64,000 bases of DNA from an uncultured Candidatus Saccharibacteria bacterium (lineage in GTDB: Bacteria > Patescibacteriota > Minisyncoccia > Phycocordibacterales > SBAW01): contig CAZTNI010000001.1 of NCBI GenBank assembly GCA_964615415.1, positions 240,746-304,745 of the forward strand, written 5' to 3'. Position numbers and translations under genes: made by a program. Of this stretch, positions 2,049 through 51,339 are shown one piece after another (position 1 is the stretch's first letter; every line of letters begins with the position of its first letter). The notes beneath the pieces were generated by a model. The model ran no database searches. It saw only the letters and a list, made by a program, of their open reading frames with translations, and had not been told where the DNA came from.

Positions 2049-2122
2049 GTCGGCGTAGCTCAGGTAGTTAGAGCATGGGACTCATAAACCCAAGGTCGAA
2101 GGTGCAAGTCCTTCCGCCGACA
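2049..2122 (+). tRNA. tRNA with anticodon CAT (Met/initiator-like); CCA not encoded
   Basis: Acceptor GTCGGCG/CGCCGAC, D-arm TAGCTCAGGTAGTTAGAGC, anticodon loop CTCATAA flanked by a GGG/CCC run, T-arm GAAGGTGCAAGTCCTTC. Confidence 0.75.
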
Positions 2123-4478
2123 CTAGTGTAGGGGACGTTTCTTTGCTGCACATAGACTCCATTGGGTGCTTTGCAACCCAAGCTTTTACGTGTGTGAGGA
2201 GTCGATCAAAATCCGCGATGCTCGAGTTGTGGGAGAAGGAGATGCGGGCAATATCTTTAACTGGTTTGATATAGATCTGCTGCTTTTTTAGGTAGGCAGC
2301 GAGCGCTGCTGGGTCGGACACGCGCAGTGCAATAATATTGCCCTGGTCTTCGTCGTGGTCGATAAACGAAATATTTTCTTCAGTAAGACGTTTTTTGCAA
2401 GCCGCAAGGAATGCCTTGTTCTTTTTCTCTACTGTGCGAATACCAATCTGGTTTATGTGCTTTAAGGCCGCGTGGAGCGTTACGACACCCATCAAATTAA
2501 CCGTGCCACCTTCAAAACGGCTGGCTGTGTCTTTGAGGGTGTAACTTTCTGTATCGAAGTGTGCCATGCTGCGCATGCCTACTTGAGTCTCTTTAAGGAG
2601 TGGCATGAGGTTTTTGTTGACGTACATAAAGCCCATACCCACCATGCCCCCCATATATTTTTGTCCGCCACACAGAAGAAAATCGACAGGAGTTTTTTGC
2701 AGGTCAATGGCACGCACGCCTATCCCTTGTACACCGTCTACCACAAGGAAGATTCCTTTACTGCGACAAATGCGGGAAAGTTTTGCGAGGTCAGGAAGGT
2801 AGCCGTCGTAGTGCTGCGCCCATGAAATTGAGATTACTTTTGTCTTGGGAGTAATGTTTGCGATGAGTGCGTCAAATGTTTCTTTGCCGTTTGCGCCATC
2901 AATCAAGCGTACGGTAATACCCTCTTTCTGTTTCTTCTGCCAGACAAAAATATTTGCAGGATATTCTTTTGCACCGAGCAACACTTCGTCGCCTTTGCGC
3001 AAGGGGAGCGCTTCGCTTGCAATATTAAGCCCTTCCGTGGTGTTTTTGATGTAGGTAATTTCACTCGGATCGCAGTGTACTAATGTTGCGGCTTCTGCCG
3101 CGAGTTTTTCTATATAGGGTTCGTATTTAAGAAGTATGTCAGGAGGGCCAACTCGGAAATATTCTTCCAAAAAATTTGCAGCAGCCTTGTAGACATGCGC
3201 TCCCATAGGACCAACGGTGCCGTAGTTAAAGAACACTTTTTTCTTTGGCTCTTCCGCGTTCTGTGCCGCTGTTTTAGTTGTAGTGGTTGGCGCTTGTTCC
3301 CACTTAATAGTAGGCATGATGATAGAACGGTCGATGTTGTCTTTGTAGCGCTTGGTGAATTCTAAAAGGTTCGCTAGTTCTGTTTGGAGCCGTCGGTCTT
3401 TTTTGGTATGCGATTGTGCGACAACAGGGTGCACCTCAACCTCTTTTTTAAGTGAACCATTGTTTTCCTTGCGTGGATTTTCTATGTATTGCACCTCAGT
3501 TGCGCCCGCGAGGTTTGTTAGTGTTTCCGCCATTTCCTTAATCGAAAGGCGTTGTGTGTAGTTGTGTGCAACGTCGTGCGTGCCCGGAGTCATGTCTGTG
3601 TTCGCAAAGTCGAGGAAATGGTCGACGGTGTCGGTCAAACTGATGAGTCCGGTCGTTTGTGATCCGTCACCGTACACAGTGAGCGGGTGACCGATAGCAA
3701 GCTGACAGACAAAACGGTTGAGTACGGTGCTAAATACTGAGTCGTAATTAAAGCGAGTGGAAAGAGAATGATTTTCTACAGCGCGATTTTCATCAATCGT
3801 GGCTCCAAAGATGGTCGACTGTTGCACGGTCAGGATCTTTAACTTCCACACCGATGCGCAGAGGTCGTTAATAAGGAAGTCGCTGATCTTCGACTGGTGG
3901 TAAAAGTCGGTAGCCTGCATGGGGAACCATGCGTTGAGGATTTTCCGTGCCTGGCCCTCGTGTTCAAATGTGAAATCTTTTTTACCAAGCGGCAGGAAGT
4001 CAGTGTCGACGTCCATGTAGCAGCCTGCGGACCCGAGTTTTATGTAGTTAATGTTTTTGTTTACTGCCGCGATAGCCCATAAAACATTCAAGTGACCAAC
4101 AATGTTGTTCGAGAAGGTTGCGGCGGCGTTCTTTGCGTTCATCATTGAAAATGGTGCGGAAGGCTGCTGCGCAGCATTAATGATGACCGAGGGGTTGTGT
4201 TTTTTAAGGAGTTTGACGCAGGCGTCCTGGTCGAGGAGTTCTACCTTTTCAAATGAAATATTTTTCTTACCAAAAATTTTTTCGTATTCTGTAATACGCT
4301 TACGCGGACTGTGAAAGGGGACCAAGAGTTTTGCGTTTACCTCCTTTTCCCATTCGCGCTTAATGAGGTTGTCTGCAAGAACAACTTTTGCGTTAGTGCG
4401 ATTTGCAAATGCGAGACCGAGGCTCCAGCCCAAGTATCCATCGCCTCCTAATATGAGGATAGTGTCGTTTTTGGTCAT
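2082..4478 (-). CDS. Fusion protein: N-terminal NAD-dependent epimerase/dehydratase (SDR, GxxGxxG + YHQSK) and C-terminal class-V (NifS/SufS-like) PLP-dependent aminotransferase
   Basis: 798-aa ORF. The N-terminus reads ILILGGDGYLGWSLGLAF with a YHQSK catalytic dyad. The C-terminal half carries DGVQGIGVRAIDL…CGGQKYMGG, the PLP-lysine motif of class-V aminotransferases. The last ~13 codons overlap the tRNA at 2049-2122 on the opposite strand. Confidence 0.7.
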   Translation of the reverse strand: MTKNDTILILGGDGYLGWSLGLAFANRTNAKVVLADNLIKREWEKEVNAKLLVPFHSPRKRITEYEKIFGKKNISFEKVELLDQDACVKLLKKHNPSVIINAAQQPSAPFSMMNAKNAAATFSNNIVGHLNVLWAIAAVNKNINYIKLGSAGCYMDVDTDFLPLGKKDFTFEHEGQARKILNAWFPMQATDFYHQSKISDFLINDLCASVWKLKILTVQQSTIFGATIDENRAVENHSLSTRFNYDSVFSTVLNRFVCQLAIGHPLTVYGDGSQTTGLISLTDTVDHFLDFANTDMTPGTHDVAHNYTQRLSIKEMAETLTNLAGATEVQYIENPRKENNGSLKKEVEVHPVVAQSHTKKDRRLQTELANLLEFTKRYKDNIDRSIIMPTIKWEQAPTTTTKTAAQNAEEPKKKVFFNYGTVGPMGAHVYKAAANFLEEYFRVGPPDILLKYEPYIEKLAAEAATLVHCDPSEITYIKNTTEGLNIASEALPLRKGDEVLLGAKEYPANIFVWQKKQKEGITVRLIDGANGKETFDALIANITPKTKVISISWAQHYDGYLPDLAKLSRICRSKGIFLVVDGVQGIGVRAIDLQKTPVDFLLCGGQKYMGGMVGMGFMYVNKNLMPLLKETQVGMRSMAHFDTESYTLKDTASRFEGGTVNLMGVVTLHAALKHINQIGIRTVEKKNKAFLAACKKRLTEENISFIDHDEDQGNIIALRVSDPAALAAYLKKQQIYIKPVKDIARISFSHNSSIADFDRLLTHVKAWVAKHPMESMCSKETSPTLVSAEGLAPSTLGL

Positions 4479-32879: not shown

Positions 32880-34118
32880 ATGGACCACACGAACCCATGG
32901 GAGAGTGCTAAAAAGCAATTAGCAAAAGCAACCGCACATATCTCGCTTGATCCGCTCTTACGTGCAACGCTAGAACATCCTGACCGTATTGTAGAAGTGT
33001 CGGTGCCAGTCACTATGGACGATGGGTCTATCCGTGTGTTCGACGGTTTTCGGGTACAGCACAATAATGCGCGTGGTCCGTATAAAGGAGGACTGCGCTA
33101 TCACGAGGAAGTGGACATGGATGAAGTCCGGGCACTCTCGTTTTGGATGACGATGAAAAACGCAGTCATCGACGTGCCGTTTGGTGGAGGGAAAGGCGGC
33201 GTGCGCGTGAACGCCAAAGAACTTTCAGAAGGTGAACTTGAGCGTCTTACTCGAGAATTTGCACGTAAAATCGCTCCTGTGATAGGCCCGGACATAGACG
33301 TGCCAGCACCTGATGTAAATACAAACGGTAAAATAATGCTTTGGATCGTCGATGAGTATGCAAAAGTAACGGGAGCTCCTGCACCTGCGGTCGTAACCGG
33401 TAAGCCGGTCGGCCAAGGTGGTTCAGAAGGTCGCACTGAAGCAACAGGGCTCGGCGGGTCGTACGCACTTGCTGCACTTGCGCCGCGTTTAGGAAAAAAA
33501 CTTTCAGACCTGCGCGTTGCGGTGCAAGGGTTTGGCAATGTGGGGAGCTACGCAGCACAATTTTTACAAGAAGCAGGCTGCACTGTGGTTGCTATTTCCG
33601 ACTCGCAAACCGGTATGTACAACCCTAACGGAATTAAAAACCTACAAGCAGTACGCGAATATAAAGAAAAGACAGGGAAGCTTGAAGGTTGTCCAGAGCT
33701 AGTAGAGGCAGAGCGTGTGCCGCATGACGAAGTGTTAAAGCTTGCGGTAGATGTCATAGTCCCTTCCGCACTCGAAAATGCCTTGACGATAGATAATGCG
33801 CCGCACGTGCAAGCCTCAATTGTGCTTGAAATGGCCAACGGACCAACCACTGCCGAGGCGGACGAATTTTTAACCAATAAAGGTGTTGTTATTATTCCCG
33901 ATATTTTGGCAAACGCCGGGGGTGTTGCGGTCAGTTACTGCGAATGGGAGCAAAATAAAAAGAACGAGCGTTGGAATAAGGAAGACGTCTTTGGGTTTCT
34001 GCAAAAGAAAATGAGTAGTGCTGCAGAACGAGTATGGGACACTGCGCAAACATACAAAGTGTCCTTGCGCGAAGCTGCGTATGTGGCCGCACTTAAGAAA
34101 ATATCAGAAAAATATTGA
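32880..34118 (+). CDS. gdhA: Glutamate dehydrogenase
   Basis: GGGKGG catalytic lysine motif, and an NAD(P)-binding domain with GFGNVGSYAAQ. Confidence 0.9.
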   Translation: MDHTNPWESAKKQLAKATAHISLDPLLRATLEHPDRIVEVSVPVTMDDGSIRVFDGFRVQHNNARGPYKGGLRYHEEVDMDEVRALSFWMTMKNAVIDVPFGGGKGGVRVNAKELSEGELERLTREFARKIAPVIGPDIDVPAPDVNTNGKIMLWIVDEYAKVTGAPAPAVVTGKPVGQGGSEGRTEATGLGGSYALAALAPRLGKKLSDLRVAVQGFGNVGSYAAQFLQEAGCTVVAISDSQTGMYNPNGIKNLQAVREYKEKTGKLEGCPELVEAERVPHDEVLKLAVDVIVPSALENALTIDNAPHVQASIVLEMANGPTTAEADEFLTNKGVVIIPDILANAGGVAVSYCEWEQNKKNERWNKEDVFGFLQKKMSSAAERVWDTAQTYKVSLREAAYVAALKKISEKY

Positions 34119-41018: not shown

Positions 41019-44000
41019 ATGAATTTCTTCCCACTTCTTATCGCGGGCCCAGGCAAAATAGCACTTCGATTGATGGGAATGATTCTTGTCGTCTCATTTT
41101 TTCTTTCTCCTCTTGCCCCTGTGTTTGCGCAAGAAGCAGATCCTGGAGCTGGTAGCGAAACTCCTGTTGCTGAAGAGTTGCTAACTGAAGAACCCTCTGA
41201 AGCAGATACTTCTACAGAAACTTCTGAAGAACCTGTGGTTGAAGAATCTGATCCAACGCCAACTGACCCAACAGAAGAAACTTCTTCTGAAGAAGTTTCA
41301 GAGTCGGAAATTTCCGAACTCACTGAAGAATCGGAAGAAGACTCACTACTAGAAGAAGAACTTGAACCAGAAGAAGACTCGCTGATGTCATCATCAGGAG
41401 GAGATCAGGGTACTGGAGAAGCTGTCGATTATGCAGCAGCTGGTGCACAAGCGAAGGTGGATGCATTCGGAGCTCTTGTGCAGAAAATTCAAATTGAAGT
41501 TCCTCCTGGTCGCAACGGTCTTCAGCCAGATTTATCTCTGCTTTACAACAGTCTGCAGTATGAAGATGGAAGTCTGGTGGGTTTTGGATGGGGGTTAACG
41601 ATACCGTATATTGAACGACTCAATCGCACTGGTGTTGATCGTTTGTATACCGATAATTATTTTTCGTCCTCTATGTATGGAGAATTAGCCTCCACGAGTG
41701 TCCCAGGTGAATATCGTCCAAGAACTGAAAACGGAGATTTTGTTAAATTTGTTTTTCAAAATAATATCTGGACTGCGTACGATAAACAGGGAACACAATA
41801 CAAATACGGTTCGACTACAGGATCTCAGGTGTACGACACTGCAAGCTCAACACAGGTTGGTGTATGGATGCTGCAGGAAGTTCGCGATACAAACAACAAC
41901 TACATAAAATATAACTATCAAAAAAGTGATAATCAGATTTATCCTTCGACGATTATCTATACAGGCAACGAATCTACCGACGGCATCTTCTCTGTAAGCT
42001 TTTCAAGACAAACACGACCAGATCCTATCTTTAGCTACAAGTATGGTTTTTTGGTAGAGACAAAAGATAGAATAAACCAAATTACAGTAGCGGTGAGTAG
42101 CTCGACTGTCCGCTCATACGCGCTTGCGTATACCTCCGGAAATAACGGGTATCGTTCTATGCTTTCTTCTGTAACTGAAACGTATGTTAATCCTGATGGT
42201 ACTAGTGTTGCGTATGCGCCGTGGCAGTTTGCTTATACTAACCAAACGCTTTCCTTTACTGATCAGGTTGAGAAAGAGGAAGGGGGATATAGGTCGCCAG
42301 CTTTCGTGCGTACCGACTTAAATGGCAACGGTCTTCTCGATATTGTCGCTTCATTTGTTGACTGGTCTCCTGCAGTGCAGAAAAATCTCCGTGTCATAAA
42401 CAATGGAAACTTTTCATTTACTAGCTCGGGTACGTTCTCTCCGGGATCAACAGACGTTCAAGTTACTTGGGCAAATGCTAATCCTTCTCCTAGTTGGCTT
42501 GTTTCCAGCGATCCTGGTGTGCGCCTCATGGACATAAATGGTGATGCGCTGCCAGATGTCGTGCAAAGTTATGTGTGCCAAGTAACATGCTCGACCTCAA
42601 TACAACAATATTTCTTGAATCTTGGTAACGGTCAGTGGCAGTCTACTGCAGCTACTACAACAGGATGGAATTATATTGTACGTGACCAACCAGGCACTTC
42701 TATTCCGCACGCCACAATCGCTATCATTGGAAACGTAAACGGCGACACTGTAGATGATATTTTTCCATACGAAGTAAATTATTTCGCAAGTACAGGTGGA
42801 GGTTCTCCACGTTGGACAAGCAACCAAGGTCAGCTGGTAGATCTTAACCATGACGGATTGGATGATGCATTTGCTCGTTTCGGTACAACTGCTTCTACAA
42901 GTATTAATAGAGGGGGGACAATAGGAATTACCACTGCATCAACCTCATTCAGCTACACAGCGACCTTTAATGGGCCGAGCGCCTATGAAGACAACGTAGA
43001 CAAAGGAATTCGCATCATGGATATAAATAATGATGGTCTTCCGGACCTCGTACGCTCATATCTTTTCTCGGGCGGTTACTCTTCTCATGGTGATGGCCAG
43101 TATGTGCCGCAAGATACAAGTTCTTCGACGCAAATTTATATAAACACAGGTGTTGGGTGGACCAGAATGCAAAACCCTCCAGCTATTCCCGTTATCTCAA
43201 ATCCTTCAAGTCAAAGTGGTTTTTGGACAGGTGCTCAACTTATTGAAGCGGTGTGGGACCAGGATGGTGATGGAGATGCAGAGATTGGTACCTATACCAA
43301 TAACATGAGTCGACAAGATTTGTTGAAGCAAATTACTTTGCCGACGGGAGGGTATGTGTATGCAACAAGTACTCCTACAACACAGCAATTCACCGGTTCT
43401 CAGGCTCACCACCCGAATTCTGTAGTACCTGTGTGGACTGTGTCGGAAATTACACACGATGATGGAAATGGTACACGAGAGACCAGTCGCTATTCTTACA
43501 AAGACGGAACACTCTGGTATGGTGGCATTAATAATCGAAAATATGCAGGCTTCGCAAGCACTACAGAGTCATACTATGGTCTTACTACCAAGTATTACCA
43601 TCAGGGAGATGAGACAGATTCTTCTCGTGGGGAATACCAAGATTCATTTGCAAAGATTGGCAAAATGTATCGTGTAGAGAGAACTAATAACGATGGAGTG
43701 GTGTATGCAAAGACTATCTACAAATGGGATCAGGCTACCACTACGTACGGAAATGTGTTCGCAAAATTAGTGCAGAAAGTAGACATGGAGTACAACGGCG
43801 ACGGTACTCACAAGGATCGTGCAGAGACATATACCTACGACAATGCCTCGGGCAATCTTACTGAAAAGAAGGAGTGGGGAGAGGTGACAGCATCAGACGA
43901 TGGAAGTTTCTCTGACACTGGGAGCGACATATTTGTCACAACGTACACCTATGCAACAGTAAACGCTTCTTCTACTGTTAGTCTTTTAGCGTCACAGTTA

Positions 44001-47000
44001 AAAACAGATCAAGGCGCTAATACTGTTAATGAGTCGAAGTTCTATTACGATTCGCAGTCATTTGGCTCCGCAACAGTAGGTAACCTTACAAAAGCAGAAA
44101 AGAGAATTAACCCAACTACTTTTGCAAGTACTACTAAGACATACAACAGCTACGGTTTACCGACCCAACAAAAGGATGAGAATAATAACGCTACTACGTA
44201 TGTATACGATGCGTTTAATCTCTACCCTGCAACCTCTACCAATGCCCTAAGTCAAAGTACAAAATATCAGTACAACTATGCGCTGGGCAAACTTGCTACA
44301 ACTACTGACTCAAATAATCAGACCTGGGTTAAAAAGTATGACGGCCATGGCCGTTTGCTTGAAGTGCAAGTGCCTGACCCTGCAACCTCAACTGCGCGTG
44401 TAATAAAGACTACCTACACGTATACCGATACTCCGCTTGCTGTGTCGGTAAAAAAGAGTTCGTACCTCGACGCTACTAACATAGTAGATTCTTACACGTA
44501 CTACGATGGTTTGGGGCATGCGATTCAAACCAAACAAGAAGCAGAAGGGGGAGAGTGGATTACTAAAGATGTAAGTTACAACGTGCGTGGTCGAGTATTC
44601 ACAGAAACACTTCCGTATCCAACAACAAATTACGTAAAGAGTTCTCCTACTGCTACTACAACCCTGTATACCAACTACATGTATGATCCGCTTAACCGAG
44701 TAACAGAATCACACACGGTCGTTGGCACTACAACAAATACGTATGATGACTGGAAGAAGACAGTTACGAACCCGCTTGGCATTGCGAAGTCATTCTATAA
44801 CGATGCGTACGATAATCTAGTTCGTGTAGATGAGACTAATAGCGGCTCTACTTATACAACGTTATATACGTGGGATGGAAATGGAGCGCTAACGGGTATA
44901 ACGGATGCTCTCAGTAACATACGCTCGTTTACGTACGACATGTTGGGTCGTCGCACTCAGGCAACAGACCTGCGTGCTTCTGGAGACGGCACATACGGTA
45001 CGTATACATATACCTACGATCCGGCGGGGAACATGAAGTCTAAGGTAACTCCGGTTGGGTCAACCATTAACTACACCTACGATGCGCTTAATCGCCTCAA
45101 GACAGAAGATTATACAGGTCAGGCAGGCACAGAAACCACCTATACCTATGACGCATGTACGCTCGGTGCAGGGAAGTTGTGCGTGGCAAGCAGTACTGCT
45201 TCAGTCGTGGGGTATGCATATACCCCAGCGGGTCTTGTTAAGACTGCAACCACAACTGTGCTAGGCACGCCAACCGTATTTACTACATCGAGTACATATG
45301 ATCGGCAGGGAAATCAGACAACTCTTACATACCCTGACGGTATGGAAGTGAAATACACCTATAATGCGGGTGGCTACATAGAAACCGTTCAGAAGAAAGA
45401 GGCGAGCGAAGGATCATTCTCAAACATAGTGTCTAACTTTAATTACTCACCCGTTGGTCAAGTAAGTCGAACCGAGTATGCAAATGGAGCGGTAACTACC
45501 AATACGTATGATCCTGCCACTCTCTACAGACTCAGCAATAAACAAACTATTCTCGGTGGTTCGCAGCAGGCACAAAACATCAGCTACAGCTACGACGCTT
45601 TGGGAAATATTTTGCAAGTTACCGATGCGTCAAATACGGCAGCTGCAAAAACGGTTAACTACTCGTACGACGACTTGTCTCGCCTTGTTACTGCATCTAC
45701 CACCAACGCAACAAGTAGTCCGAACTATAGATACACATATGCATACAATGCTCTGGGTAATATCACGAACGGTCCACTCGGGGTCTACACATACGCAGGT
45801 ACGAACTATGCAAACCCGCATGCAGCAACTGCTATAGCGACAACTTCAGGAGGTGGAGGAGGCGTTGCGACAACCACGACTCATACAGTATTTGCCGACG
45901 CCCTTACCCCAGGATGGAACGATTGGTCATACAATGCGGTACTCGACCTTAACGCAACTACCACGTACGCAGGAAGCAAAGCTATCAAGGTTACCTACTC
46001 AGTCGCTTGGGGTGGTTCATATTTGCAAAAGACTGCTGGAATCCAAGTTGGTACCTCTACTGCGCTTCAACTCGCCTTGCGTTCAACAAGTTCATCGCCT
46101 GACGTTACCATCGATATATATGGTACCAACGACGCGTATCTTGGATACGCTGACCCTACTGACTATATCGGCGGTCCTATTGCTGCTAACACGTGGTATC
46201 TACTTACTATCCCGTTTTCAGATTTTGGCGCCACTTCAACTATCAGTGGCATCGTAGTTGCACGCGACACTCCAGGTGTTCTCTATATCGATGAATTAAA
46301 GACTGTTGCCACATCTACAGGCGGAGGAGGTTCTGTGGCAACTACCACGCTTGCATACGATGCGAACGGCAACCTTACCTCAGACGGTACATTTACCTAT
46401 ACATGGGATTATCTCAACCGCATGACTCAGTCTGGTAACGGTACTGCCACATCAACCTATGCATACGATCAAGATGGTAATCGCGTAAAAATAGTTGAAG
46501 CAGGCGTCACCACAATCTTCCCAAACAAGTTCTACAACGCAATGCTTGGTGGTGCTGGCACTACTACAAAGCACATATATGCGGGAGACATGCTCCTTTC
46601 TACGATAGAGAATACAAATACTGCCGCTGCGACAACCACTACACACACGGTGTTTACCGACGCACTTGCTGCGGGCTGGAACGACTGGTCGTATAACGCT
46701 ACGCTCAACGTTAACGAAACTGCAGTTGTCTACAGCGGTGCTAAGTCAGCAAAGATCACATACAGCGCACCATGGGGCGGAGCATACATACAAAAAACGG
46801 GTGTAAATGTATCAACCTCTACGGCACTGCAGTTCGCAATCCGCCAACCTGTCACAACTGTTGATGTCGACCTCGATATCTATGGCGCAAACGATCAATA
46901 CCTTGGATACGTTAATATTGAGAATTTTGTGCCCGGAGGTGTGCTCCTTTCCAATACATGGCAGGTGGCAACGATACCGCTGTCAGCTATGGGCGCAACT

Positions 47001-48059
47001 TCTACGATCACGGGTATTGTGTTTGCGCGAGATGCAACAGGTACTCTGTATTTGGATGATATAAAATTCATCGCAACCTCTACCTCAGGAAGCCCTGCAA
47101 CATCAACGGTCCGCTACATCCATACAGATCATCTTGGTGGTACCAACGTTGTCACAAATGCGAGTGGTGCGGTGGTAGAAACAATTGACTACTATCCATA
47201 TGGAGAGACTCGTCTTGATGCGAAGGTTGGGACTTATGGAGGAGAAAAGAATAAATATGCGGGTACTGAGTATGACGCAGGTAGTGGTTTGAACTACATG
47301 CAGGCACGTTATCAAAGCCCAACTCGCGGAAACTTCATATCGCAGGATCCGGTGTTCTGGGAGATTGATATTACTAATGATGGTAAAGCAGTTCTCTCAA
47401 ACCCTCAACTTCAAAATTCATACAGTTATGCTGGCAATAATCCAATCGTAAGTAAAGATCCATCTGGAAGATTCCTAGACACCATTCTCGATTTAGGATT
47501 TATAGCTTACGATGTATACAAAGTTGGCCAGGCGGCCTTCACTGGCGGAAATGTTGGTGAGCAGTTAGGATACTTAGGGCTTGATGTAGCTGGGGCAGCC
47601 GTACCATTTGTCACAGGTGCGGGAGTAGCTGCTAGAGGAGTTAAAGCTGCTAATGCGGTAGCAGATGCAGCCGGCGGCGCCAACAAAGCAGGTAATGCTG
47701 CTCAGGCGGCTAATACCGCAGTAAAATCACTACCGGACTCGACGTTGGTCTGCAGAGGAGGAGGTTGCTCGGTGGAAAGTTTTATTAAGGGCAGTAATGA
47801 AGGAAGGGCGGGTCTTAATCCAAGTCCAACAACTCCTCTTACTGGGGTATCAGTAAATATGGGGGGTTCAAAAAATGCACTTATTAGCAATTTGCCTGGT
47901 GACTACCCTAAAGCAGGTTTTACATTCACCAATCAAATACAAAAACTTGGTGGCAATGCAGTATCTAGCCCTTCTCTTAATAATCCTTTCCACGGTCTAA
48001 TCAACGGCCTCAGTGCCCAGCAATTGAATAATATTTTTAAAGTAGAAAAGATAAAATAA
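41019..48059 (+). CDS. Giant secreted Tc-toxin/RHS-type polymorphic toxin: SpvB/TcB-like N-terminal domain, FG-GAP-like region, YD/RHS repeats, RHS repeat-associated core, unassigned C-terminal toxin domain
   Basis: 2346-aa ORF with a signal peptide and an acidic linker. The SpvB motif (…GLQPDLSLLYNSLQYEDGSLVGFGWGLTIPYIERLNRTGVDRLY…) is followed by many YD repeats (YTYDALNRL, YSYDALGNI, YAYDANGNL, YAYDQDGNR). The RHS core reads RYIHTDHLGGTNVVTNASGAVVETIDYYPYGE…ARYQSPTRGNFISQDPVFW. Confidence 0.85.
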   Translation: MNFFPLLIAGPGKIALRLMGMILVVSFFLSPLAPVFAQEADPGAGSETPVAEELLTEEPSEADTSTETSEEPVVEESDPTPTDPTEETSSEEVSESEISELTEESEEDSLLEEELEPEEDSLMSSSGGDQGTGEAVDYAAAGAQAKVDAFGALVQKIQIEVPPGRNGLQPDLSLLYNSLQYEDGSLVGFGWGLTIPYIERLNRTGVDRLYTDNYFSSSMYGELASTSVPGEYRPRTENGDFVKFVFQNNIWTAYDKQGTQYKYGSTTGSQVYDTASSTQVGVWMLQEVRDTNNNYIKYNYQKSDNQIYPSTIIYTGNESTDGIFSVSFSRQTRPDPIFSYKYGFLVETKDRINQITVAVSSSTVRSYALAYTSGNNGYRSMLSSVTETYVNPDGTSVAYAPWQFAYTNQTLSFTDQVEKEEGGYRSPAFVRTDLNGNGLLDIVASFVDWSPAVQKNLRVINNGNFSFTSSGTFSPGSTDVQVTWANANPSPSWLVSSDPGVRLMDINGDALPDVVQSYVCQVTCSTSIQQYFLNLGNGQWQSTAATTTGWNYIVRDQPGTSIPHATIAIIGNVNGDTVDDIFPYEVNYFASTGGGSPRWTSNQGQLVDLNHDGLDDAFARFGTTASTSINRGGTIGITTASTSFSYTATFNGPSAYEDNVDKGIRIMDINNDGLPDLVRSYLFSGGYSSHGDGQYVPQDTSSSTQIYINTGVGWTRMQNPPAIPVISNPSSQSGFWTGAQLIEAVWDQDGDGDAEIGTYTNNMSRQDLLKQITLPTGGYVYATSTPTTQQFTGSQAHHPNSVVPVWTVSEITHDDGNGTRETSRYSYKDGTLWYGGINNRKYAGFASTTESYYGLTTKYYHQGDETDSSRGEYQDSFAKIGKMYRVERTNNDGVVYAKTIYKWDQATTTYGNVFAKLVQKVDMEYNGDGTHKDRAETYTYDNASGNLTEKKEWGEVTASDDGSFSDTGSDIFVTTYTYATVNASSTVSLLASQLKTDQGANTVNESKFYYDSQSFGSATVGNLTKAEKRINPTTFASTTKTYNSYGLPTQQKDENNNATTYVYDAFNLYPATSTNALSQSTKYQYNYALGKLATTTDSNNQTWVKKYDGHGRLLEVQVPDPATSTARVIKTTYTYTDTPLAVSVKKSSYLDATNIVDSYTYYDGLGHAIQTKQEAEGGEWITKDVSYNVRGRVFTETLPYPTTNYVKSSPTATTTLYTNYMYDPLNRVTESHTVVGTTTNTYDDWKKTVTNPLGIAKSFYNDAYDNLVRVDETNSGSTYTTLYTWDGNGALTGITDALSNIRSFTYDMLGRRTQATDLRASGDGTYGTYTYTYDPAGNMKSKVTPVGSTINYTYDALNRLKTEDYTGQAGTETTYTYDACTLGAGKLCVASSTASVVGYAYTPAGLVKTATTTVLGTPTVFTTSSTYDRQGNQTTLTYPDGMEVKYTYNAGGYIETVQKKEASEGSFSNIVSNFNYSPVGQVSRTEYANGAVTTNTYDPATLYRLSNKQTILGGSQQAQNISYSYDALGNILQVTDASNTAAAKTVNYSYDDLSRLVTASTTNATSSPNYRYTYAYNALGNITNGPLGVYTYAGTNYANPHAATAIATTSGGGGGVATTTTHTVFADALTPGWNDWSYNAVLDLNATTTYAGSKAIKVTYSVAWGGSYLQKTAGIQVGTSTALQLALRSTSSSPDVTIDIYGTNDAYLGYADPTDYIGGPIAANTWYLLTIPFSDFGATSTISGIVVARDTPGVLYIDELKTVATSTGGGGSVATTTLAYDANGNLTSDGTFTYTWDYLNRMTQSGNGTATSTYAYDQDGNRVKIVEAGVTTIFPNKFYNAMLGGAGTTTKHIYAGDMLLSTIENTNTAAATTTTHTVFTDALAAGWNDWSYNATLNVNETAVVYSGAKSAKITYSAPWGGAYIQKTGVNVSTSTALQFAIRQPVTTVDVDLDIYGANDQYLGYVNIENFVPGGVLLSNTWQVATIPLSAMGATSTITGIVFARDATGTLYLDDIKFIATSTSGSPATSTVRYIHTDHLGGTNVVTNASGAVVETIDYYPYGETRLDAKVGTYGGEKNKYAGTEYDAGSGLNYMQARYQSPTRGNFISQDPVFWEIDITNDGKAVLSNPQLQNSYSYAGNNPIVSKDPSGRFLDTILDLGFIAYDVYKVGQAAFTGGNVGEQLGYLGLDVAGAAVPFVTGAGVAARGVKAANAVADAAGGANKAGNAAQAANTAVKSLPDSTLVCRGGGCSVESFIKGSNEGRAGLNPSPTTPLTGVSVNMGGSKNALISNLPGDYPKAGFTFTNQIQKLGGNAVSSPSLNNPFHGLINGLSAQQLNNIFKVEKIK

Positions 48060-48060
48060 T

Positions 48061-48513
48061 ATGAAAATAAAAAATGAATCAGATTTTGTAAATGCAGATA
48101 GTAAATTGAATCTGCGGAAAATCTCTTCTAATGAAATAGAGATAACCGACGTCTATGACATCTGGGATGGGCCTTTAAGTGGTAGCTGTCTCTGGGAAAA
48201 TAAAGATTATTATTTTTTCTCTTTTGATCAACTTGAGGATGATAAATCTGGTGATCGCTGGCCAAGAAAATACATTTTAGTTAGCTTAGATTCTGAGCAA
48301 AAGCAAACTGAAGAAGAATTAAAAAACCTTTATTCGGCTTTGAAAAAAGGTGAATTTACCGCCGAAGAATATAGCAACAAATTAGAAAGAATTCCAAAGT
48401 TACAAATAGAAAATAAGCAAATTGTTGGATGGTTTGATTCTGAAGATGTTGAAAAAAATGGAACTCCAACAAGATTCATGCAATCCTATTTTTCGTGGAA
48501 AGAAAAGAATTAA
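48061..48513 (+). CDS. Candidate cognate immunity protein of the RHS C-terminal toxin
   Basis: 150-aa ORF starting 2 nt after the RHS stop. It is markedly AT-rich relative to the RHS gene. That is the typical position and composition for an RhsI-type immunity gene. Confidence 0.55.
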   Translation: MKIKNESDFVNADSKLNLRKISSNEIEITDVYDIWDGPLSGSCLWENKDYYFFSFDQLEDDKSGDRWPRKYILVSLDSEQKQTEEELKNLYSALKKGEFTAEEYSNKLERIPKLQIENKQIVGWFDSEDVEKNGTPTRFMQSYFSWKEKN

Positions 48514-48608
48514 TTCTCTATTTTTGCTTCCATAAAACGCCCATACTGTTACAAACTTTATGGGGTCTGACCCCAATTCCAAATCTAAAGAATAATAAAA
48601 AATAAATT

Positions 48609-48797
48609 ATGCATATTAAAATTGATAAGGATGTAGGTACGGCTTATATTTACATAGCGGACAACCCAGAAGATCTAAAAGGCTCTGTCCGTTCCGAGCC
48701 AGTCAACTCAGATCTGATTATTGACTACACTCCAGACGGAAAATTATTTGGAATTGAAATTCTTAACCTGAAACTTCTCGATCTTGGTGAGAAATGA
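48609..48797 (+). CDS. DUF2283-like small protein (toxin-antitoxin associated family)
   Basis: MHIKIDKDVGTAYIYIADNPEDLKGSVRSEPVNSDLIIDYTPDGKLFGIEILNLKLL resembles DUF2283 (antitoxin partner of DUF4258). Confidence 0.5.
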   Translation: MHIKIDKDVGTAYIYIADNPEDLKGSVRSEPVNSDLIIDYTPDGKLFGIEILNLKLLDLGEK

Positions 48798-48818
48798 AAG
48801 CTAATTGAGAGGCTAAGT

Positions 48819-49144
48819 ATGATTAATAATTCACGGGATAAATATATTAATCTTGCAGTTCAGTATGGTGAGTATAAAAAGAATGGAGAAGCTGAACTTG
48901 CCAACAAGGTACATCAGCAACTCTCTGAAACATCCGACGCAATAAAAAAATTGATCCAGAGGGTTTTGATTTCATTGCTAGTCCTATGAATCACCCTGAA
49001 CCATTTGTAAGACTGTGGGCCGCAACTGATTCAAAAGATTATAAACCAAAGGAGGCGAGAGCAACTTTACGGGAACTCAAATACAACAAAGACGTAGCGG
49101 GGCTAGATGCTTGGGCGTTGTTAAGCATGTGGGGAGAGGAATAA
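48819..49144 (+). pseudogene. Frameshifted (or phase-variable) ~105-aa gene split at an A7 homopolymer
   Basis: Frame 1 (ATG 48819) reads MINNSRDKYINLAVQYGEYKKNGEAELANKVHQQLSETSDAIKK and terminates after the A7 run at 48943-48949. The -1/+1 frame continues as …IDPEGFDFIASPMNHPEPFVRLWAATDSKDYKPKEARATLRELKYNKDVAGLDAWALLSMWGEE* (stop at 49142-49144). Confidence 0.5.
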
Positions 49145-49253
49145 AAAACTTCTGAAATACAGGTTGTAGAGTTGGGGTCAGGGTCCCTTCAATGACAAAA
49201 TCTATATTGCCAGGCTCTTGCGACTGATGGTGCGGTAAAAGTGTAAAAGAAAT

Positions 49254-49288
49254 CGCCCCGACACTTCATGTGTCGGGGCTGTTTTTTA
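49254..49288 (-). terminator. Rho-independent terminator immediately downstream of the minus-strand gene 49286-49837
   Basis: CGCCCCGACAC-TTCA-TGTGTCGGGGC hairpin with flanking T/A tracts. Confidence 0.7.
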
Positions 49289-49837
49289 TCCTGCTTTTTC
49301 GACTGCGGCGCGGGCAGTTTCTTCCATCGTCTTGTAGATAGGGAAATCGTACCCCAGAAGGAGCGTAGTGTTACGCTCTACCATGTCGAGTCCGGAAAAT
49401 CCTTCCTCGCCGCCTATAACGACACGAGTCTCTTTTCGGTAGAACATGTGCGCTCGCCACTCGCCAAGTTCGCCGTAGGAGTCGCGGCCGTAGGGGCCGG
49501 CTTCCGGTGCACGGGGCTCGCGTTGCTCTTCTGCCCAAAAGAGGATGCAGCCTCGCGGGGTGTGCCACGCGGCCCGTGCAAGGTAGTGCCGCTCCCAGTC
49601 GAGCTGTCGATCAAAGATGTCCGCACCCTCTTGCAGGAAGTAGCCAGCAAGTGGGTGTGTGTTATTCCACCTTGCGGGGCAGGCTATGACGCAGTTGCCA
49701 TCCGTCGCTTGGCGCAGGTGCACGACCATTTCGTGTTGCCAGTCGCCGCCACCGCGGATAGGCCCGCCAAGGAAGAAGAAGGGAAGGTCTTCGAATTCCC
49801 GAAGGTCGGGACAATATTTCGGAACAATAATGCGCAT
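49286..49837 (-). CDS. Nucleoside 2-deoxyribosyltransferase-like (Rossmann/SLOG-type) protein, GC-rich
   Basis: N-terminal FFFLGGPIRGGGDW motif typical of the nucleoside 2-deoxyribosyltransferase/LOG-like fold. GC content is much higher than the flanking AT-rich genes. The family assignment is tentative. Confidence 0.45.
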   Translation of the reverse strand: MRIIVPKYCPDLREFEDLPFFFLGGPIRGGGDWQHEMVVHLRQATDGNCVIACPARWNNTHPLAGYFLQEGADIFDRQLDWERHYLARAAWHTPRGCILFWAEEQREPRAPEAGPYGRDSYGELGEWRAHMFYRKETRVVIGGEEGFSGLDMVERNTTLLLGYDFPIYKTMEETARAAVEKAG

Positions 49838-49917
49838 GTGTTCTCCTTTTGTATGTACCTAGCGGCACTATACCGAAAGAGAAGTGTATTTGCCAGGCGT
49901 ATACTTACACTCAATAT

Positions 49918-50139
49918 ATGAGGACGATAAGCGTGCGCGTAACGGCGGGAGCAAAGAAAGAAAAGGTGGAGGAACTTGCAAACGGCCGGCTTGCTATCGC
50001 TGTTAAAGAAAAGCCCGAGCAAGGCAAAGCAAACGAACGGGTGTTGGAGTTGGTTGCAGCACACCTTAAAGTGCCGCGTAAAAAAGTAAGCATTACCCGC
50101 GGCAGCAAAAGCCCGTCTAAAATAATTACCGTCCGATGA
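49918..50139 (+). CDS. DUF167/YggU family protein
   Basis: MRTISVRVTAGAKKEKVEEL…LAIAVKEKPEQGKANERVLELVAAHLKVPRKKVSITRGSKSPSKIITV matches UPF0235/YggU. The start was trimmed to the ATG at 49918. Confidence 0.6.
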   Translation: MRTISVRVTAGAKKEKVEELANGRLAIAVKEKPEQGKANERVLELVAAHLKVPRKKVSITRGSKSPSKIITVR

Positions 50140-51015: not shown

Positions 51016-51339
51016 ATGAGCAAGACTTTTAGCGAAAAGGTGGTGGAACTCGCACTTTCTGTACCGCCTGGGCGGGTGACTACTTATGGCCGGATTGCTA
51101 TTGCGGCAGGGGGAGGAAGCATGGCCTCGCAAAGCATTTCTAATATTCTTTGGCGCGCGCAGCAGGAAAGAGGAATAAAAAATATACCCTGGCACCGGAT
51201 AGTCTATGCCGATGGAAAAGTGTGGCTCGACGAAGAGCATAAAAAGAAGAGACTGGCGTTGTATAAGAAGGAGAAAATTGTCTTAGATAAAAATAATAGG
51301 ATAGAAAATTTCGTAGATAAACTTTGGGAGTTTAAATAA
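51016..51339 (+). CDS. Alkyltransferase-like protein (ATL; Ogt C-terminal DNA-binding domain with Trp replacing the active-site Cys)
   Basis: VTTYGRIA…PWHRIV: the Ogt PCHRV motif carries W instead of C, which is diagnostic of ATL DNA-damage sensors. Confidence 0.7.
   Translation: MSKTFSEKVVELALSVPPGRVTTYGRIAIAAGGGSMASQSISNILWRAQQERGIKNIPWHRIVYADGKVWLDEEHKKKRLALYKKEKIVLDKNNRIENFVDKLWEFK
51301..51339. repeat. Left copy of a 39-bp imperfect direct repeat flanking the DUF2726 gene (right copy 51901-51939)
   Basis: ATAGAAAATTTCGTAGATAAACTTTGGGAGTTTAAATAA aligns with CCAGAAAACTTCGTAGACAAACTTTGGAAGTTTAAGTAG at about 32 of 39 positions. Both copies span the stop codon of the preceding gene. Confidence 0.75.

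Follow-up and report, generated by a model that had tools for sequence, protein, structure and literature searches.

Polymorphic toxin-immunity systems carry a recognizable signature, in which the same C-terminal tip is found on varied carrier proteins and one kind of small gene follows it in each case; polyimmunity loci, immunity proteins of the HEAT type and adjoining recombinases have also been described (PMC3482391). In programmed -1 frameshifting, the heptamers A_AAA_AAA and A_AAA_AAG have been proven slippery in bacterial IS elements and in dnaX (PMC4066793; PMC5009743). The DUF2019 family (PF09450) has a solved structure, that of RPA1889 (PDB 2i9c), and is without a published function. 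Antitoxins of the DUF2283 family pair with DUF4258 toxins. In this study, a split gene located next to a DUF2283 gene and an RHS toxin gene was analysed together with its window, namely the whole 64-kb stretch of DNA. The analysis suggested that a recent and real A8-to-A7 deletion probably inactivated an orphan immunity gene of the DUF2019 type beside the RHS toxin, which would thus be a young pseudogene and at most leaky.

The locus contains an RHS/SpvB-type polymorphic toxin gene on the + strand (41019-48059), which encodes a protein of 2346 aa that matched Rhs_assc_core (TIGR03696, E 2e-15) and had precomputed SpvB and RHS_repeat matches. Starting 2 nt past the RHS stop, an ORF of 150 aa (48061-48513, + strand; GC 0.318) is presumed from its position to be the cognate immunity gene of this toxin. 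The 150-aa ORF had no family match, including none to DUF4258, and a PDB sequence search with it was empty. The C-terminal tip of the RHS protein lies within 47400-48513 and contains the segments ...LVCRGGGCSVESFIKG...GVSVN...PFHGLINGL...; sequence searches with it gave no family or PDB match, and a single-sequence AF2 model of the tip had a pLDDT of 30.6. The tip and the 150-aa ORF are a candidate for a new toxin-immunity pair. Moreover, the RHS gene contains at 45500-47100 two similar segments of approximately 200 aa (HTVFADALTPGWNDWSYNAVLDLN... and HTVFTDALAAGWNDWSYNATLNVN...). A short RHS-like stretch comes after each of them, and the arrangement represents a duplication within the protein, towards the C-terminal end of its shell.

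The 150-aa ORF is followed, after a spacer of 95 nt, by an intact gene of 62 aa on the + strand (48609-48797). The original prediction that this gene is DUF2283-like was borne out by a match to PF10049 (E 1.6e-10), whose score of 41.4 bits exceeds the cut-off of 23. The DUF2283 protein had no close homologue besides itself in 5.8 bn protein clusters, and the PDB search was empty. The split gene starts 21 nt after the DUF2283 gene. Its distance from the end of the RHS gene, which lies on the same strand, is 760 nt, and this interval contains no terminator-like site. The unit probably ends at a bidirectional terminator, a GC-rich hairpin with T runs on both strands (49255-49279). The GC content of the three small genes is 0.32-0.40, compared with 0.48 for the window. 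Furthermore, the closest RHS relative, found in a Ca. Saccharibacteria MAG, has a core that is 60% identical, differs in its tip and in the gene that follows, and lacks both the DUF2283 and the DUF2019 genes. The cassette forms the variable end of a locus for a polymorphic toxin.

These features resemble the orphan immunity and polyimmunity loci of Rhs and CDI systems (Zhang et al. 2012, PMC3482391), in which small genes likewise follow a toxin-immunity pair on the same strand. As in polyimmunity loci, the region of the cassette is strain-variable and compositionally odd, and DUF2019-like homologues elsewhere are found after toxin tips or in arrays of small ORFs by a tyrosine recombinase (L007). 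However, the window differs from described polyimmunity loci in having two extra genes only, one of which is frameshifted, and neither of which belongs to a named Imm family. A short pattern, GGGGTC(W)G..CCC, is present at 48561-48575 and 49174-49187 with AAATCTA 12-17 nt later and brackets the pair formed by the DUF2283 gene and the split gene. The copies, one upstream of the DUF2283 gene and one downstream of the split gene, may be cassette boundaries or chance, and the pattern was designed from these two copies, which makes its statistics circular.

Other parts of the window had features of their own. At 49268-49921, long antisense ORFs of 183 aa (- strand) and 217 aa (+ strand) overlap in a GC-rich segment (0.585) between AT-rich neighbours; neither ORF had a family match, and gene callers picked different strands in the L001 and L002 assemblies. 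A 798-aa ORF on the - strand (2082-4478) resembles UDP-sulfoquinovose synthase in its N-terminal half (E 2.6e-75) and SufS/cysteine desulfurase in its C-terminal half (E 4.6e-37), and a predicted tRNA-Met on the + strand (2049-2123) overlaps its 3' end.

The split gene is interrupted at a homopolymer of seven A residues on the + strand, as originally predicted; the tract lies at 48944-48950, one base to the right of the 48943-48949 given in that prediction. The first reading frame, ORF1 (48819-48989, + strand), is preceded by a Shine-Dalgarno-like GAGAGG and encodes 56 aa, comprising 44 native DUF2019-like N-terminal residues (helices 1-2) and 12 out-of-frame residues. In the frame of ORF1, the sequence across the tract is GAC GCA ATA AAA AAA TTG ATC; the homopolymer is thus read as A_AAA_AAA, and the stop codon (TGA, 48987-48989) lies 12 codons past the run. 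The run separates ORF1 from its continuation in the -1 frame, which is open from 48929 to a TAA at 49142-49144 and of which the stretch 48951-49144 on the + strand encodes the remainder of the DUF2019-like protein (residues 45-108; helices 3-6). The addition of one A, or a backward slip of one base on the run, gives a product of 108 aa. This product is identical in sequence to the fused protein proposed before, for which a length of about 105 aa had been given. An internal ATG at 48986 overlaps the stop codon of ORF1 (ATGA), and in the annotated record the halves are listed as ORFs of their own, of 56 and 52 aa.

The proposal that the two halves are one split gene was upheld by comparison with homologues. 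A phmmer search, run exhaustively over 1.84 billion cluster representatives, recovered about 95 single-ORF homologues that align through the junction, from residue ~2-9 to residue 102-107, together with the two window halves themselves (P0001 and P0002). The homologues were nearly all 107-135 aa in length (best E 1.9e-13), and their multiple alignment was collinear over the junction. A family profile was built from 34 homologues with the query left out. With this query-free profile, the ORF1 frame scored 41 bits over positions 4 to ~46 and the -1 frame 66 bits over positions 46-110; the change of frame falls exactly at the A run, in its two lysine codons (KK). The two matches abut, and each half was significant alone.

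The simplest history is that the ancestral tract was A8, reading ATA AAA AAA ATT (I-K-K-I), and that one A was lost. In the intact homologue P0104, the peptide AIKKI is likewise present and is encoded with an in-frame A7 where the window gene has its tract. Scanning genomes and metagenomes for the fused protein found no relative, a word-index homologue search with it gave nothing, and the protein collections searched with the fused product contained no near-identical full-length protein. Moreover, neither the fused protein nor the DUF2283 protein had a tblastn match among plasmids or phages. Since close relatives were absent from the scans with the fused protein, the ancestral tract is not directly visible. 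The 64 codons downstream of the tract are without a second lesion, and all family-conserved residues (VRLWAA and others) are kept; the event would therefore be recent, or the frame is still selected.

The identity of the split-gene product was examined through its family. The fused product matched PF09450 with 18.9 bits (E 0.0015) over residues 9-89, which span the junction, a score below the gathering cut-off of 23.3 bits. PF09450 was matched by 28 of the 35 family members and HEAT_2 by 13, and in Pfam none of the 35 matched DUF4258 or another toxin family. Furthermore, the family profile matched PDB 2i9c (RPA1889) over its full length (positions 3-113, E 3.7e-11). An AF2 model of the fused product, computed with the alignment, had six helices with a pLDDT of 96 and a pTM of 0.89, and Foldseek aligned this model to 2i9c at a TM-score of 0.90 (rmsd 1.7 over 108 columns), with nothing besides 2i9c at E < 0.1. 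On account of the PF09450 matches of the homologues and the match to the 2i9c fold, the split gene is predicted to encode an all-helical DUF2019/HEAT-like protein and not a DUF4258-type toxin. The fused product shares with DUF2019 members such as RPA1889 a full-length collinearity and the same six-helix fold; it differs from them in falling under the Pfam cut-off and in being interrupted by a frameshift. In the model, the frameshift occurs after residue 44, in the loop behind helix 2, so ORF1 alone would give a two-helix stub with 12 unrelated residues. Two of the phmmer homologues, P0032 and P0070, have a DUF2019-like domain fused to a DMP19-like domain (PF14300, a DNA-mimic family) and resemble a two-domain polyimmunity protein; no literature link was found between DMP19 and immunity proteins.

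The neighbourhoods of the homologues revealed what the DUF2019-like genes usually accompany. At six independent loci (L017, L023, L025, L009/L030, L027 and L020/L021), a DUF2019-like gene lies directly behind one conserved C-terminal domain of approximately 100 aa, on the same strand, with a spacing that ranges from an overlap to a gap of 109 nt. This domain, named here WHHIVEQ, has the pattern G.G..WHHIVEQ...N(V/I)...H..I..(F/Y)Y...T(V/L)R(D/Q)W...S(F/Y)..Q..(Y/F)G..L. In L017, the domain (2000-2333) is the tip of an RHS-repeat protein, the one locus in which this was found; the carrier is of 776 aa or more, with RHS repeats (RHS_repeat, E 2e-27), an RHS-core end and a pre-toxin linker, and a gap of 12 nt separates it from the DUF2019-like gene. 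The carriers in L023 (domain at 1-531; a 176-aa fragment cut by the contig end) and L025 (domain at 3600-3933; 402 aa) each overlap the DUF2019-like gene by 4 nt. In L009/L030, the domain (L009:5700-6026 and L030:1950-2263) is carried by proteins of 275-284 aa with an overlap of 26 nt. The carrier in L027 (domain at 1711-1959) is a fragment that overlaps the next gene, and that in L020/L021 (domain at L020:1-363) is a 120-aa fragment followed by a gap of 109 nt. Because the WHHIVEQ tip on varied carriers has a DUF2019-like gene behind it in every case, the latter stands in the immunity position, and DUF2019 may accordingly be regarded as a putative immunity family of this toxin-like domain.

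The WHHIVEQ domain had no significant match in Pfam, NCBIfam or the PDB, and its sole trace was to HNH_2 (E 0.046). It is probably a candidate HNH-like (HNH/EndoVII-type) polymorphic toxin domain that is undescribed or poorly covered, and this nuclease label derives solely from the WHH...N...H motif and the one weak HNH_2 match. A described parallel is Imm-HEAT, the partner of Ntox34 and Tox-REase-7 (PMC3482391), which resembles the DUF2019-like proteins in its all-alpha HEAT-like repeat and its association with RHS-borne toxins. In contrast to Imm-HEAT, the partner of the DUF2019-like genes is a different and unclassified domain, that with the WHHIVEQ motif. In six frames of the 64-kb window, the WHHIVEQ profile had no match (best E 0.98); with respect to its usual partner, the split gene is therefore an orphan within this stretch.

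Other homologues (L007 and L012) are found in arrays of small ORFs without a known family, and L007 lies beside a tyrosine integrase/recombinase. A second, tandem DUF2019-like copy is present at L020:866-1220, and also in L021, downstream of the intact P0036 gene. The copy has decayed: codon 14 is a TGA, and around profile positions 60-67 the frame changes or sequence is deleted. Decay is usual in DUF2019-like genes, and the tandem copy in L020/L021 is broken at positions other than that of the window gene. L028 has at 335-562 the C-terminal half of DUF2019 only (profile positions 51-114), in an ATGA overlap with an unrelated upstream ORF of 109 aa, and no N-terminal half was detected there in any frame. 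In L010, a DUF2019-like gene (3874-4227) interrupts an F-type ATP synthase operon, where it separates the gene for the alpha subunit from that for the gamma subunit.

The A7 tract was identical in the NCBI contig and in the assemblies made separately from SRR14271366, SRR14271370, SRR14271374 and SRR14271376, and one of the A7 assemblies differs by a SNP at 51086. The site is the same in L001-L004, and further assemblies that share one of these contigs have A7 as well. Of the three options in the original prediction, namely a recent inactivating frameshift, a sequencing error and a phase-variable switch, the first is the best supported. According to the preferred reading, the split gene would be an orphan immunity-type DUF2019 gene for a six-helix, HEAT-like protein binder. 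Together with the DUF2283 gene, it would occupy an AT-rich variable stretch after the RHS toxin and its presumed immunity gene. The loss of one base in the ancestral A8 tract would have left A7 and shifted the frame after residue 44, so that normal translation of the A7 allele would yield a 56-aa fragment. Spontaneous -1 slippage on A_AAA_AAA, or polymerase stutter, would give a trace of full-length protein at most. Within this reading, the role in immunity, the change from A8 to A7 and the loss of function are inferred.

The other explanations attribute the A7 tract to regulation, to error or to a different kind of gene pair. That the tract is a working switch or throttle, through which few cells or few translation events make the full DUF2019 protein, was given a small chance. 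If this were true, the tract would provide a bet-hedged immunity to the WHHIVEQ-type, nuclease-like toxins of neighbours in a probable Saccharibacteria/CPR bacterium.

Phase variation is an improbable form of such control. Slipped-strand exchange between A7 (OFF) and A8 (ON) would allow a subpopulation to express the putative immunity protein, and the site would suit this, with a lesion in a coding homopolymer, a single base that restores the whole protein and a downstream half that is otherwise undamaged. Conflict genes are, moreover, typical contingency loci. However, all assemblies found carry A7, these being consensus sequences, and no 108-aa protein derived from an A8 allele was present in the collections searched. 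An A7 tract is also short for a high-rate switch. In addition, the tract is not special in the window, where 19 other A/T runs of at least 7 bases occur, mostly in ordinary intact genes.

Programmed recoding, in which the ribosome slips by -1 on A_AAA_AAA or the polymerase adds an A to set a low level of the full protein, was judged to be quite improbable. The window has a slippery heptamer of the X_XXY_YYZ type in the correct phase, identical to those of programmed -1 sites (dnaX and the IS3/IS911 family; A_AAA_AAG and A_AAA_AAA), and a -1 shift on it gives exactly the homologous frame. This agreement in phase is nevertheless yielded automatically by a deletion inside ATA AAA AAA ATT. Unlike the programmed sites, that of the window is without a downstream hairpin or pseudoknot and without an upstream SD-like element: the 80 nt downstream folded no better than shuffled sequence (z +1.36), and the preceding 30 nt contained no purine-rich SD-like motif. 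Frameshifting in E. coli at heptamers that lack a stimulator is only 2-10 times the background of ~0.055% (PMC4066793), which argues against a set level of product here. The site is also not conserved, as the split occurs in none of the ~95 homologues, all of which are single ORFs; the other disrupted copy, that of L020, has its break elsewhere, and the window gene is neither a mobile-element gene nor dnaX.

A sequencing or assembly error, in which the true genome has A8 and the gene is intact, is very unlikely. Homopolymers are the classic site of indel errors, and the gene is otherwise perfect. However, A7 recurs in at least four separate run assemblies, although these runs all belong to one project and may share a platform bias. 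The window has 19 other A/T runs of at least 7 bases, and a comparison of their positions with the ORF list placed about 16 of them, one A8 and one T8 included, inside intact ORFs such as the genes for glutamate dehydrogenase (A7 at 33494-33500) and LexA, which they leave uninterrupted. Because A7 is present in every independent assembly and the other A7 and A8 runs leave genes intact, the error suggested as an option in the original prediction was set aside as unlikely.

The original prediction further proposed that the two small genes may be a toxin-antitoxin module caught in an OFF state. A type II module, with DUF2283 as the antitoxin and the split gene as its toxin switched off, is extremely unlikely. 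The identity of the DUF2283 gene was confirmed, and a spacer of 21 nt separates the two genes, which lie on one strand and are arranged antitoxin-then-toxin, as listed for DUF4258 modules (PMC11980606). The window thus resembles DUF2283-DUF4258 pairs in having the DUF2283 gene first and a second small gene close behind, and it differs from them in that the second gene is not DUF4258. This partner was matched by no DUF4258 profile and is predicted to be all-alpha and DUF2019/HEAT-like with the 2i9c fold, not a BECR RNase; its homologues stand in the immunity position behind toxin domains. DUF4258 had no match among the ORFs scanned around the locus. Moreover, no DUF2283-like ORF was found in the homologue loci L007-L030 with precomputed Pfam matches and phmmer, and PADLOC gave no hits. 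A reported link between DUF2283 and frameshifting (FseA/QseM, PMC4755241) was judged to be irrelevant, as it concerns a +1 shift in an ICE activator and the DUF number may be a slip. DUF4258-type tips occur on CdiA toxins (PMC11630599), and the DUF2283 gene might conceivably be a second orphan antidote, for example to tips of this type.

A functional split protein, in which ORF1 and a reinitiated 52-aa ORF2 (ATGA 48986-48989) are made and reassembled, is likewise hardly credible: an ATG does overlap the ORF1 stop and a copy with the C-terminal half only exists in L028, but the Met at this position is ancestral (many homologues have L-M-x-H), which makes the overlap a by-product, and reinitiation at 48986 would start without a preceding SD sequence and drop residues 45-56, most of helix 3.

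In conclusion, a recent deletion in an orphan immunity-type gene is the explanation that we favour for this locus, and the 56- and 52-aa ORFs of the annotated record should be joined as one pseudogene. The frameshift alone is of little weight, since the gain and loss of spare immunity genes by Rhs toxins is to be expected. What the locus adds is a record, from a probable Saccharibacteria genome, of accessory immunity-type genes accompanying an RHS toxin. Furthermore, the DUF2019 family gains a testable assignment, as the putative immunity partner of the unclassified WHHIVEQ toxin-like domain on RHS and other scaffolds.
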